Translations under genes and position numbers: made by a program
Shown: positions 1,812 to 4,794 of the stretch, piece by piece
Position numbering within the stretch: the stretch's first letter is position 1
Layout of the letters: every line of letters begins with the position of its first letter
UHGV virus genome: UHGV-0105281
From: a virus
DNA length: 23,753 nt
Strand: one strand, 5' to 3'
The notes under the pieces: model-generated
What the model was told of the DNA's origin: nothing
Database searches by the model: none
The model's input: only the letters and a program-made list of their open reading frames with translations

Positions 1812-2326
1812 GCATAAGAGAACTAAACCTCACCAAAGAACAGCATGAGTGGCTGAATGGCTGGCTTGAACTGTGGGGCGCATGGGTTTATTCAGGTCGT
1901 CTGGAAAAGCGCATGAGCAGCGTAATAGCGAAGTTCATGGAGAGCGTAGAGCCGGGAAGAGTTATGACAAGGCCAATGTGTAATGATGATGATGGAATGT
2001 TGATTTCTCAGGTCGTCGATTCCGTCATGTACATTGACAAGAAAGCCTTTGGCATCCTCCTCAGCTACTACGCTCATGGTTCATCTAAGCGAGCAATTGC
2101 ATCCTACTATCACGCGACTGCAAAGCCACGCAAGATGTGTGGACGTGGTGGCGAGGGATGGAGAAAACCTTCACTGGCAACCTGTAGAAACGAAATTGAC
2201 GACATCCTGAAAGCGTCATTATTTGTTTTGTACCAACCAATGCAAAATGCTTTCAAAATGCGTAAACGTGTTGAGAAAGTTAAGCATGTTGCTGTTAAAA
2301 ACCTTGACATGCAATTAGCCATTTAG
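1808..2326 (+). CDS. Late-gene antiterminator Q (non-lambda Q family)
   Basis: 172-aa Cys-containing ORF directly after ninH and directly before a promoter, terminator, tRNAs and the lysis cassette. Called mainly from position; not lambda Q. Confidence 0.6.
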   Translation: MSIRELNLTKEQHEWLNGWLELWGAWVYSGRLEKRMSSVIAKFMESVEPGRVMTRPMCNDDDGMLISQVVDSVMYIDKKAFGILLSYYAHGSSKRAIASYYHATAKPRKMCGRGGEGWRKPSLATCRNEIDDILKASLFVLYQPMQNAFKMRKRVEKVKHVAVKNLDMQLAI

Positions 2327-2333
2327 CCATAAT
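2304..2333 (+). promoter_or_regulatory. PR'-like late promoter (TTGACA, 18-bp spacer, CATAAT) at the 3' end of the Q gene
   Basis: Consensus -35 TTGACA at 2304-2309 and -10 CATAAT at 2328-2333, directly read from the sequence. Confidence 0.4.
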
Positions 2334-2343
2334 TAGAGGGTAA

Positions 2344-2387
2344 GCTGCCGTTAGTGACTCTTAAGTTGCAACGGTGGCTTTTTTTAT
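2344..2387 (+). terminator. tR'-like intrinsic terminator just downstream of the late promoter
   Basis: Inverted repeat gctgccgtt...aacggtggc followed by a T-run (ttttttta). Confidence 0.5.
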
Positions 2388-2389
2388 TT

Positions 2390-2464
2390 GGGTCAGTCGT
2401 ATAAAGGTCATTACGGAAGGCTGTTAACCTTCTTATCGTGGTTCGAGTCCACGCTGTCCCGCCA
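2390..2464 (+). tRNA. tRNA-Asn(GUU)-like, with a degenerate D-arm
   Basis: Perfect anticodon arm gaagg-ctGTTaa-ccttc, perfect T-arm cgtgg-ttcgagt-ccacg, 7-bp acceptor stem with one T-T mismatch, encoded CCA; the D-arm is only about 3 bp. Confidence 0.5.
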
Positions 2465-2469
2465 AATAT

Positions 2470-2545
2470 GCTGGTTTAGCTCCAATGGTAGAGCAGTCGC
2501 CTTGTAAGCGAATGGGTAGCGGTTCAAGTCCGTTAACCAGCACCA
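2470..2545 (+). tRNA. tRNA-Thr(UGU)
   Basis: Hand-folded cloverleaf: acceptor gctggtt/aaccagc, D-arm gctc-caatggta-gagc, anticodon loop cTTGTAa, T-arm agcgg-ttcaagt-ccgtt, encoded CCA. Confidence 0.75.
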
Positions 2546-2789
2546 TAACTGAGCCGTAGCCACTGGCTATCCTGAATTCATCAGTGATAGTTACGCTGCG
2601 GCCTTCTACACATGACCTTCGTGAAAGCGGGTGGCATGAGGTTGCGCTAACAACCTCCTGCCGTTTTGCCCGTGCATATCGGTCACGAACAAATCTGATT
2701 ACTAAACACAGTAGCCTGGATTTGTTCTATCAGTAATCGACCTTATTCCTAATTAAATAGAGCAAATCCCCTCAATGAAGGGGTAGAGC

Positions 2790-2993
2790 ATGTACCGTAT
2801 GGACAAAATCAGAGAATGGTTCAGTTACAGCTTCGGAGGACTGACTGCGATGGGTGGCATTCTCTCCCTGAATGACTGGGCTGTCATCATTGGTATTCTT
2901 TGTACTGTCGGCACATTTGGCATCAACTGGTACTACAAGCGCAAAGAGCGCGAGGACAGATTGAATGGCAATGTCACCGGCACTACGAAATAG
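2790..2993 (+). CDS. Class II holin/pinholin (phage 21 S-like) with dual-start motif
   Basis: 67 aa; N-terminus MYRMDKI gives two starts (Met1, Met4) with an intervening Arg; two hydrophobic TM segments and a charged C-terminus; lies immediately upstream of a SAR endolysin. Confidence 0.8.
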
Positions 2994-3468
2994 CGTAATA
3001 GCGGCGATAAGTGGCGGGGCTATTGCTATAGCATCTGTGTTAATCACTGGACCAAGTGGTAACGATGGCCTGGAAGGTGTCAGCTACATACCATACAAAG
3101 ATATTGTTGGTGTATGGACTGTATGCCACGGACACACCGGAAAAGACATCATGCTCGGTAAAACGTATACCAAAGCAGAATGCAAAGCCCTCCTGAATAA
3201 AGACCTTGCCACGGTCGCCAGACAAATTAACCCGTACATCAAAGTCGATATACCGGAAACAATGCGCGGCGCTCTTTACTCATTCGTTTACAACGTGGGT
3301 GCTGGCAATTTCAGAACATCGACGCTTCTTCGCAAAATAAACCAGGGCGATATCAAAGGCGCATGTGATCAGCTACGTCGCTGGACATATGCTGGCGGTA
3401 AGCAATGGAAAGGTCTCATGACTCGTCGTGAGATTGAGCGTGAAGTCTGTTTGTGGGGGAAACAATGA
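2965..3468 (+). CDS. SAR endolysin (T4-type lysozyme with N-terminal signal-anchor-release domain, phage 21 R-like)
   Basis: N-terminal Gly/Ala-rich weakly hydrophobic segment ([16 protein letters not shown]) followed by a lysozyme-like domain; near-identical to my recollection of phage 21 R. Alternative start at ATG 2971. Confidence 0.9.
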
Positions 3469-3932
3469 GCAGAGTAACCGCGATTATCTCCGCTCTGGTT
3501 ATCTGCATCATCGTCTGTCTGTCATGGGCTGTTAATCATTACCGTGATAACGCCATCGCCTACAAAGAACAGCGTGATAAAAAAGTCAGTGAGCTGAAGC
3601 AGGCGACCGCCACCATTACTGACATGCAGCAACGCCAGCGTGCTGCTGATGTACTCGATGCAAAATACACGAAGGAGTTAGCTGATGCGAAAGCTGAAAA
3701 TGATGCTCTTCTGCGGAAGCTTGATAATGGTGGCAGGGTGCTCGTCAAAGGAAAATGCCCTGTGCCATCCTCTGCCGAAACCTCCAGCGCCTCCGGCATG
3801 GGCAATGATGCCACCGTCGAACTCTCTCCAGTTGCTGGACGAAACGTTCTCGGTATCCGGGACGGAATTATCCGCGACCAAACAGCATTGAGAACGCTTC
3901 AGGAATACATCAGGACGCAATGCCTTCGATGA
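3465..3932 (+). CDS. Rz i-spanin
   Basis: N-terminal TM segment followed by a charged coiled-coil region; ATG 3465 overlaps the endolysin stop (ATGA). The ORF track start at 3453 is a GTG. Confidence 0.85.
3685..3891 (+). CDS. Rz1 o-spanin lipoprotein, embedded in the +1 frame of Rz
   Basis: [19 protein letters not shown] signal peptide with lipobox and a Pro-rich mature region ([11 protein letters not shown]); AGGAG RBS 7 nt upstream. Confidence 0.8.
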
Positions 3933-4106: not shown

Positions 4107-4133
4107 AGCCTCGCATTTGCGGGGCTTTTTTAT
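4107..4133 (+). terminator. Rho-independent terminator downstream of the lysis cassette
   Basis: agcctcgc-attt-gcggggct hairpin followed by ttttttat. Confidence 0.6.
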
Positions 4134-4275
4134 ATCTGAATTTCACAGCGCATCTCACGCGCATATTAACGAGAGCCTTTCAGTAAGCGAGCCTGAGAAA
4201 TGCCGTTATAGGTGGCGACCTCTCTCGGGCGGCTTTTCTGTGAGACAGGCTCACTTTCTAAAAGGTAAAGACGCT

Positions 4276-4794
4276 ATGAATCATCAATTGGCTAATCTCG
4301 ATTTCCGGGACATGGTGGTTGTTTCTGGTGATCGCGTGATCACAACCTCCCGCAAGGTAGCAGCTTACTTCGACAAGCAGCATCACCACATCATTCAGAA
4401 AATCGAAAAGCTAGACTGTTCGGATGAATTTCTAACCAGCAACTTTTCGCGGGTTACCTATGAACACAAGGGTAATCAGTATGTTGAATATGAAATTTCC
4501 AAAGACGGTGCGATGTACATCATCATGTCGTTTACCGGCAAAAAAGCTGCCGCCATCAAAGAGGCGTTTATCAAAGCATTTAATTGGATGCGTGACAGGC
4601 TGATGGAGATGGCTCACTCATACCAAAGAGAGCACAACGAGTTAATGCTGGAGTTCATGAAGGAAAAGGATGTTGCCAGTATGTCAGGACGCTTGCTGAA
4701 CCGCTGGGGCAGGATCAAAAAACCGCAACTCATAGCAAGAATCGAAAGGCTTGAGCAGCAGGCGCAAATATCGATCCCCGGACTGCCAAAGTGA
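4276..4794 (+). CDS. rha: Rha-family phage regulatory protein
   Basis: MNHQLANLDFRDMVVVSGDRVITTSRKVAAYFDKQHHHIIQKIEKL is a typical pRha N-terminal domain. The ORF-track start at 4117 lies inside the upstream terminator, so ATG 4276 is preferred. Confidence 0.75.
   Translation: MNHQLANLDFRDMVVVSGDRVITTSRKVAAYFDKQHHHIIQKIEKLDCSDEFLTSNFSRVTYEHKGNQYVEYEISKDGAMYIIMSFTGKKAAAIKEAFIKAFNWMRDRLMEMAHSYQREHNELMLEFMKEKDVASMSGRLLNRWGRIKKPQLIARIERLEQQAQISIPGLPK

Follow-up and report, generated by a model that had tools for sequence, protein, structure and literature searches.

A probable dual-start HP1-family holin with an sdi-type hairpin over its first Shine-Dalgarno sequence heading the lysis cassette of an E. 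coli lambdoid prophage

In this study, we found that the viral genome UHGV-0105281, the whole 23,753 nt of which are called the window here, carries a holin gene of the HP1 family which has two in-frame start codons and is preceded by a hairpin covering the Shine-Dalgarno (SD) sequence of the first of them. The locus is the region that controls translation initiation of the first gene for lysis in an E. coli lambdoid (lambda-like) prophage, and the explanation that best accounts for the whole, and which we regard as quite probable, is that the dual start and the hairpin, the latter of the type known as sdi in phage lambda, together set the balance between antiholin and holin. Because such an arrangement has already been worked out in phage lambda, the locus is largely ordinary, an uncharacterised member of a well-known kind; it provides one more allele of a textbook lysis-timing mechanism, and its value lies mainly in annotation. 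Only the conserved structured leader of the late transcript, which is described further below, might make experiments worthwhile.

The holin gene starts at ATG 2790 and contains a second in-frame ATG at 2799 (codons ATG TAC CGT ATG GAC AAA ATC, encoding M-Y-R-M-D-K-I). The long form (2790..2993, plus strand), called as an open reading frame (ORF) with matches to PF16080 (E 4e-21) and to the holin family phrog_20, is a 67-aa protein beginning MYRMDKI and is the predicted antiholin, and the short form from Met4 (2799..2993, plus strand) is a 64-aa protein beginning MDKI and is the predicted active holin. Thus, the two starts three codons apart and the extra Arg of the longer form, from which the original prediction had argued for a holin and antiholin pair, are present in the sequence as described, and the longer product gains one positive charge, Arg3. 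Gene callers annotate both the 67-aa and the 64-aa versions, and several database entries start at Met4, whose codons ATGGACAAAATC are identical to the start of S21-68, the pinholin of phage 21. For comparison of the start region, 80 loci were fetched by holin protein similarity and their upstream frames were translated. Close homologues all have M1, R3, and M4, with Y, Q, or H as residue 2, and the sister clades begin with M-R-M-D-K, M-K-M-D-K, M-K-L-M-D-K, M-R-M-P-E-K, M-T-R-M-S, M-A-R-M-S, or M-T-K-M-S, so that a single K or R stands between the two Met residues in each related clade seen. By this pattern, the dual start is conserved beyond chance. Its retention across several holin clades, along with the position of the gene at the head of the lysis cassette, also supports the holin/antiholin arrangement originally proposed. 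An extra positive charge, which alters topology, defines the antiholins S107 of lambda and S21-71 of phage 21 (PMC9636201), and by analogy the M-x-R-M start would be the signature of these proven antiholins. A lambda-S-like holin found behind the same leader in the IMG/VR sequence L185 begins with ATG AAG TTG, with TTG at the second start position, and is a possible case of a non-ATG dual start.

The hairpin, CCCCU-CAAUGA-AGGGG, lies at 2768..2783 on the plus strand (arms 2768-2772 and 2779-2783), exactly where it had been placed from inspection as overlapping the GAAGGGG ribosome-binding site. Its 3' arm is the SD sequence for ATG1 and belongs to the purine run GAAGGGG, with 6 nt separating that run from ATG1; relative to ATG1, the hairpin spans -22..-7 and AGGGG occupies -11..-7. 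When its stability was checked by RNA folding, as had been suggested, the hairpin was found in both the ViennaRNA minimum free energy (MFE) structure and the centroid of a 61-nt context, and the hairpin in isolation has a predicted energy of -7.5 kcal/mol, compared with -9.4 for lambda sdi. Between the hairpin and ATG1 lies the spacer UAGAGC (2784..2789, plus strand), which contains a weak second purine element (GAG, 2785-2787; UAGAG at -6..-2) as the presumable counterpart of the lambda UAAG that serves Met3. This GAG is 2 nt from ATG1, which is too close, and 11 nt from ATG4, and would therefore serve Met4 only. Elements similar to UAGAG are also present in homologues.

The relationship to lambda is stronger than the analogy originally drawn. 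Positions 2550-2772 of the window are ~97% identical to lambda 44948-45170 (223 nt). The identity runs through ...AGAGCAAATCCCCT, after which the window continues with CAATGAAGGGGTAGAGC ATG and lambda with TATTGGGGGTAAGAC ATG, and the homology stops directly after CCCCT, the 5' arm of sdi. Since the leader identity ends exactly there, the hairpin is, by alignment, positionally homologous to lambda sdi and not merely analogous, and since the 5' arm is shared and divergence follows it, the mosaic junction passes through the hairpin loop. The 5' arm is part of the shared leader, and the 3' arm and the SD sequence move with the holin gene. In lambda, the SD sequence GGGGG at -12..-7 serves Met1 and an unusual SD sequence, UAAG at -6..-3, serves Met3, a stem-loop at -21..-7 controls access to the first SD sequence, and a downstream stem-loop is present as well (bioRxiv 10.1101/2025.05.14.654169). 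The window shares with lambda S (S107/S105), beyond the leader and the hairpin 5' arm CCCC(U) received by descent, the end of the hairpin at -7, a G-run as Met1 SD in the 3' arm, one basic residue between the two Met residues, and a weak purine element between hairpin and ATG1 (UAAG in lambda, UAGAG in the window). In contrast, lambda S is a class I holin with three transmembrane domains (TMDs), whereas the window holin has two TMDs in 67 aa and belongs to the HP1 family, an unrelated fold class. The starts are two codons apart in lambda (M-K-M) and three in the window (M-Y-R-M), and the window hairpin has a loop of 6 nt rather than 5, a U-A closing pair, and the lower predicted stability given above. 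No equivalent of the lambda downstream stem-loop could be established in the window. A perfect 8-bp intragenic stem at 2811-2818/2858-2865 (AGAGAAUG/CAUUCUCU; codons 8-10 and 24-26) might be its counterpart and is loosely retained in homologues with wobble pairs. Its z-scores are not significant and its codons are constrained, and we do not claim it as a real element.

Occlusion of the first SD sequence is not limited to the window. The initiation regions of 48 unique sequences were folded one by one, and 18 distinct types were compared with a background drawn from the window (612 SD-like 4-mers; median local-occlusion score 0.2). Seventeen of the 18 types score 0.75-1.0 for local SD occlusion, corresponding to the 86th-99th percentile of the background, and in the exception the SD sequence is paired at longer range. 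In nearly all 48 regions, a local hairpin ending 5-9 nt upstream of ATG1 holds a G-rich SD sequence in its 3' arm, and the occluding stems differ among themselves (CCCCU/AGGGG, CCCC/GGGG, CCGA/UCGG, UCCGA/UCGGA, CACC-CGC/GCG-GGUG, CGCC.UCCGA/UCGGAGGUG, CUCCC/GGGAG, and ACACCC/GGGUGU). Further leaders have CCUCAC/GUGAGG before P22-type M-K-K-M holins, the P22-type leaders that were fetched reading GAACAAAUCCUCAC-GGUC-GUGAGG, and CCUCC/GGAGG before an M-K-N-M holin. RNAalifold found no shared fold for 20 initiation regions (-30..+3), as their hairpins vary both in register and in the length of the loop. One and the same leader 5' arm stands before at least six unrelated holin types, each with a matching 3' arm, and this comparison of leaders shows SD occlusion to be the feature selected across mosaic junctions. 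Phage P22 gene 13 is a likely parallel: a dual start at Met1/Met4 with an interchangeable upstream stem-loop was reportedly described for it by Nam et al. in 1990. It resembles the window in its M-x-x-M spacing and in a stem-loop over the SD sequence within the same leader family, and differs in that gp13 is a class I, lambda-S-like holin and in that the stem sequence is different on both arms. In eight other IMG/VR leaders (L100, L110, L114, L119, L134, L146, L178, and L201), the same leader and a CCCC...GGGG hairpin are followed by ...GGGGUCGCUAAUAUGCGGCCUGGUAGUCUC... and by no holin start; the GGGGUCGCUAAUAUGCGGCCUGGUAGUCUC element looks like another conserved, possibly structured element.

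These features can be joined in a simple scheme. The closed hairpin would hide the strong Met1 SD sequence, and 30S subunits would then be diverted to the weak purine element 3' of the hairpin, leading to initiation at Met4 and synthesis of the 64-aa holin. Breathing or opening of the hairpin would instead permit initiation at Met1, giving the 67-aa product that carries Arg3. Judged by the example of S107 and S21-71, this product, which has the additional residues M-Y-R, would act as an antiholin by means of its extra arginine and would inhibit the holin until the membrane depolarises. As the closed and open states would choose between Met4 and Met1, the stability of the hairpin would set the antiholin:holin ratio and so the time of lysis. 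With an endolysin of the R21 type encoded by the next gene, the holin would need to depolarise the membrane only. Experiments by Nam et al. in 1990 and by Barenboim et al. in 1999 are reported to have established that such stem-loops determine the ratio of initiation at the two starts of P22 gene 13 and of S21.

Several observations weigh against this scheme. The fold of the 61-nt context has a z-score of only -1.8, and a 5-bp stem is trivial by itself. The predicted probability of the hairpin is 0.96 in short contexts and ranges from about 0.2 (0.22) to 0.95-0.96 in longer ones depending on the boundaries chosen. Dinucleotide-preserving shuffles of the 31 nt upstream occlude the SD sequence about equally (combined p 0.03), a test which does not discriminate because C-runs survive shuffling and a fixed span (-13..-7) was scored. 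The second purine element, as noted above, is weak and 11 nt from ATG4. On the protein side, the holin falls below the threshold of PF04971 (Phage_holin_2_1, the family of phage 21 S; 19.5 bits vs 26), and BLASTP against S21-71 gives no significant match (E 0.27). Among representatives of PF16080 at 50% identity, a minority are called with a dual start and most with a single one, and the hol gene of Haemophilus phage HP1, the type member, is itself without a dual start (PMC7312051).

The protein is assigned to PF16080 (Phage_holin_2_3, the HP1 holin family) with 75.1 bits against a gathering cut-off of 28.8 (E 4.4e-21), and all its database homologues belong to PF16080. Its family match thus places it as a 67-aa class II holin with two predicted TMDs of the HP1 family and not of the S21 family. 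As judged by composition only, TMD1 consists of 50% G/A/S/T and has a mean hydropathy of 1.02, compared with 1.34 for TMD2; in S21 the hydropathy of TMD1 is 0.22, and the contrast between the two TMDs is similar to that in the window holin. The holin is genetically paired with a SAR (signal-arrest-release) endolysin, the next gene encoding an R21/RrrD homologue with an N-terminal SAR segment, and the pairing of the holin with a lysozyme-family endolysin gene is seen at other loci too. With S21 (S21-71 antiholin and S21-68 pinholin) the holin has in common the class II two-TMD architecture, starts at Met1 and Met4, a weakly hydrophobic TMD1, and identical codons from Met4 onwards (ATGGACAAAATC, MDKI), and the two phages also share essentially the R21 endolysin (PDB 3HDE, E 2e-107) and an identical upstream block of a tR' terminator with tRNA-Asn and tRNA-Thr. 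They differ in Pfam family, in the basic residue (Arg3 in the window, Lys2 in S21), in the lambda-type leader and hairpin of the window, and in the 29-nt overlap of its holin and endolysin genes. The HP1 holin shares the Pfam family and the first position in a SAR-endolysin cassette, small holes also being indicated for it by experiment (PMC7312051), and differs in its length of 78 aa, in the single start, and in having no known antiholin.

Since the R21-type SAR endolysin needs membrane depolarisation only, the predicted 67-aa holin is probably a pinholin, and the term is plausible by analogy. The only holin for which depolarising, protein-excluding holes of ~2 nm have been demonstrated is S21-68, with indirect evidence for that of HP1 (PMC7312051). 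It could alternatively be supposed that this class II holin makes large non-specific holes and is no pinholin, and that the dual start acts by blocking insertion of TMD1, as in lambda, rather than its release. We consider this doubtful. The failure to reach the S21 Pfam threshold, a TMD1 that is more hydrophobic than that of S21, and the inconclusive topology predictions for the HP1 holin (PMC7312051) would fit such a reading. However, each locus examined pairs the holin, through the conserved 29-nt overlap, with a lysozyme-family endolysin, of which the copy in the window has the SAR segment; half of TMD1 is made of G/A/S/T; and the holin of the HP1 family acts like a pinholin alongside a SAR endolysin, beta-galactosidase not being released (PMC7312051). 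For HP1-family holins of enterobacterial prophages, both starts ought to be annotated, and the cassette described as probably pinholin-type with a SAR endolysin.

A dual start may also be conserved for reasons other than initiation at both codons. Only one start might be used in vivo, the M-x-R-M motif being kept for the sake of the protein (its topology or charge balance, for example) and the hairpin throttling total holin synthesis. The annotation of both versions by gene callers, the weak and distant second SD-like element, and the single start of HP1 and of most HP1-family representatives are in line with this idea. The related clades, however, vary the flanking residues (Y, Q, H, T, A, or none), the spacing (MRM, MxRM, MKLM), and the downstream residue (D, S, or P), and yet two Met residues and one basic residue persist, as they do at the dual starts proven by experiment in lambda, P22, and phage 21 (PMC9636201, and reportedly the 1990 and 1999 studies of Nam et al. 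and Barenboim et al.). Use of a single start is accordingly improbable in our estimation, and initiation at both codons, with the long form as antiholin, is what we infer.

Upstream of the initiation region, the leader contains a composite RNA hairpin of ~70 nt, termed P1 (2619..2690, plus strand), which is formed by CGUGA/UCACG, GCGGGU/GCCCGU, and GGCA.GAGGUUG/CAACCUC.UGCC and has an MFE of -33.2 kcal/mol. In an alignment of 47 distinct leaders, 93.8% of the cells in P1 are paired, compared with 36-41% when the partners are slid by 1-3 columns, and the covariation score is 0.229, compared with 0.04-0.08 for slid partners; all 10 pairs of the inner helix show changes on both sides. By these pairing and covariation scores, therefore, P1 is a genuine conserved RNA structure, and it is also present in lambda at about 45017-45088. 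A stem at 2633-2662 followed by GUUUUG, which lies in P1 and resembles a terminator, seems less likely to be a plain terminator than a structural element, the U-rich tail itself being paired in the conserved helix. A scan of 2250-3050 against Rfam (E <= 1) found the two tRNAs and a chance snoRNA match only, with no family for the leader, and a search of the accessible literature found no description of a late-leader RNA.

The 9-bp inverted repeat that had been noted at 2689-2730, with no function proposed for it, does exist, with its position 2 nt off: on the plus strand, its arms are segment 1 (GAACAAATC, 2687-2695) and segment 2 (GATTTGTTC, 2719-2727), so that it occupies 2687..2727 with 23 nt between the arms. 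By itself it is no rarer than chance, the window containing 2 perfect 9-bp repeats with loops of up to 40 nt, compared with 3.3 +/- 2.2 in shuffled sequences. The arms CACGAACAAA ... GGAUUUGUUC recur, however, in diverged leaders of lambda, Serratia, and IMG/VR sequences, which were located through the holin protein or through unrelated anchors, and there they enclose interiors of 23 to ~47 nt that are unrelated in sequence. The interior of the repeat in the window folds into a small hairpin of its own, and different leaders have different interior hairpins (UUACU/AGUAG, GUUAC/GUAAC, or GUCU-loop-AGAC). In the set of leaders found with a search pattern, the invariance of segments 1 and 2 is uninformative, because one pattern fixed both. 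In the long-type leaders L093-L185, many repeat loops contain a perfect 12-bp palindrome, GTCTGATCAGAC, with a GATC Dam site; its variants alter the central four bases only, and either an RNA tetraloop hairpin or a DNA-binding site is conceivable.

Segment 2 can also pair further downstream. Segment 3 (ATAGAGCAAATCC, or AUAGAGCAAAUCC in its second notation; 2757..2769, plus strand) can form 13 pairs, one of them G-U, with 2718-2730, and its final two C residues are also part of the 5' arm of the sdi hairpin, so that the 2:3 pairing competes with both the repeat helix and the base of the sdi hairpin. Segment 3 was used in no leader search, and its core of 10 pairs is kept in 46-47 of the 47 leaders. 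It is conserved as GA[AG]CA[AG]AUCC in nearly all of them, and nearly all changes are compatible with wobble pairing, the exception being a U-to-C change in L203. The RNAalifold consensus of the leaders picks the 2:3 pairing. Partition functions give the 1:2 helix together with sdi a probability of 0.7-0.95 with one set of boundaries and, with other boundaries on the same sequence, 0.21 for 1:2 vs 0.76 for 2:3, and the isolated energies are -13.9 (1:2), -15.3 (2:3), and -7.5 kcal/mol (sdi). Thus, the leader is bistable in silico, and by these models thermodynamics alone cannot decide between the 1:2 and 2:3 pairings.

The inverted repeat is therefore best described, alongside P1 before it and segment 3 with sdi after it, as one helix of a conserved folded leader, and our best guess is that it may shield the base of the sdi hairpin from invasion by segment 2. 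On a wider and tentative reading, the late leader would be a conserved structured RNA of ~170 nt, made of P1, the repeat helix with a lineage-specific inner hairpin, and segment 3, with a possible conformational switch, and it would be distributed over lambda, P22-like, phage-21-like, Serratia, Klebsiella, and other enterobacterial prophages. As segment 2 (GGAUUUGUUC) pairs with segment 1 or segment 3 at comparable predicted stability and the 2:3 pairing removes the base of sdi, it is possible to speculate about a switch, whether kinetic, protein-dependent, or temperature-dependent, that would set access to the first SD sequence, the antiholin:holin ratio, or the total holin output, although we give this rather little credence. 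If it does exist, such a switch would be a second layer of RNA control on lysis timing. It is noteworthy that the S leader of lambda itself contains both the strongly covarying hairpin and the three-segment alternative pairing; if these are functional, the lysis clock of lambda, which is the best studied of all, would have an unrecognised RNA layer that could easily be tested by lambda genetics.

It seems very unlikely that the hairpin and the inverted repeat are instead DNA-level features (a mosaic-junction linker for module exchange, protein-binding repeats, or a minus-strand terminator), as could be suggested by the break in lambda homology inside the hairpin, by the three occurrences of GAACAAA as candidate protein-binding repeats, by a terminator-like site flagged by the scan on the minus strand at 2783-2768, by the conservation of segments 1-3 in sequence and not through double compensatory changes, and by the chance-level frequency of the 9-bp repeat alone, since the hairpin has been rebuilt from different sequences before at least six holin types and always covers the SD sequence, which is not required of a recombination linker, the adjacent P1 helix is rich in double compensatory changes, which indicates RNA-level selection on the leader, segments 1 and 3, apart from the L203 exception, vary by A-to-G or C-to-U alone and so keep pairing as G-U, and no convergent gene lies here on the minus strand.

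The surroundings place this RNA and the dual-start holin gene at the start of the late operon in a lambdoid prophage of mosaic make-up, as follows from the upstream neighbours (the Q gene, promoter, terminator, and tRNAs), the lysis cassette downstream, and the database matches. Several E. coli chromosomes, those of LS45 and KE40 among them, match the locus with 100% identity, and Salmonella P22-like phages match it at ~98-99%; in these phages the counterparts of the holin gene carry the annotation 'class II holin'. In the cassette the holin comes first, followed by the SAR endolysin and Rz/Rz1. The R21/RrrD-type SAR endolysin gene (2965..3468, plus strand) is identified by PF00959, by the match to PDB 3HDE given above and one to 4ZPU, and by an N-terminal hydrophobic segment rich in G/A/S, and overlaps the 3' end of the holin gene by 29 nt. 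Its ORF opens with M-A-M, the second Met (ATG 2971) being where the alignment with the crystallised R21 sequence begins. The 29-nt overlap is also found at each of the four homologous loci inspected, one in Serratia, one in E. coli, and two in metagenome-assembled sequences. The Rz i-spanin gene (3465..3932, plus strand; PF03245, phrog_13) has its likely ATG at 3465, which overlaps the endolysin stop codon as ATGA, and the Rz1 o-spanin lipoprotein (3685..3891, plus strand; PF06085, phrog_3198) is encoded inside Rz in another frame.

Upstream, a Q-type antiterminator gene (1808-2326) precedes the late promoter. The candidate for this promoter, pR' (TTGACA-18-CATAAT; 2304..2333, plus strand), is near consensus, overlaps the end of the Q gene, and was recognised by a promoter scan (11/12) and by alignment to the annotated pR' and Q-binding element (QBE) of phage 21. 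Two TTAGCCA direct repeats stand between its hexamers, at the site of the QBE repeats ATTGAGCA/AATGAGCA of phage 21, and are probably the QBE for the Q type of this phage. A tR'-type terminator that would yield a short late transcript (2341..2389, plus strand) is identical to the phage 21 annotation by alignment with OL657228, and is followed within the late transcript by tRNA-Asn(GTT) at 2390-2464 and tRNA-Thr(TGT) at 2470-2545, both on the plus strand and supported by ARAGORN and Rfam tRNA matches; the same pair is present in phage 21. Terminator, both tRNAs, and ~60 nt beyond them (2341-2609) are essentially identical to phage 21, whereas the Q gene, promoter, and holin differ, with mosaic junctions falling near 2340 and 2610 and at 2772. 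The lysis cassette and a strong terminator (4107-4126) are directly followed by an ORF at 4117-4794 for a Rha-family regulator with Phage_pRha and ORF11CD3 domains, and a second ORF resembling a Rha-family regulator is present at 255-977.

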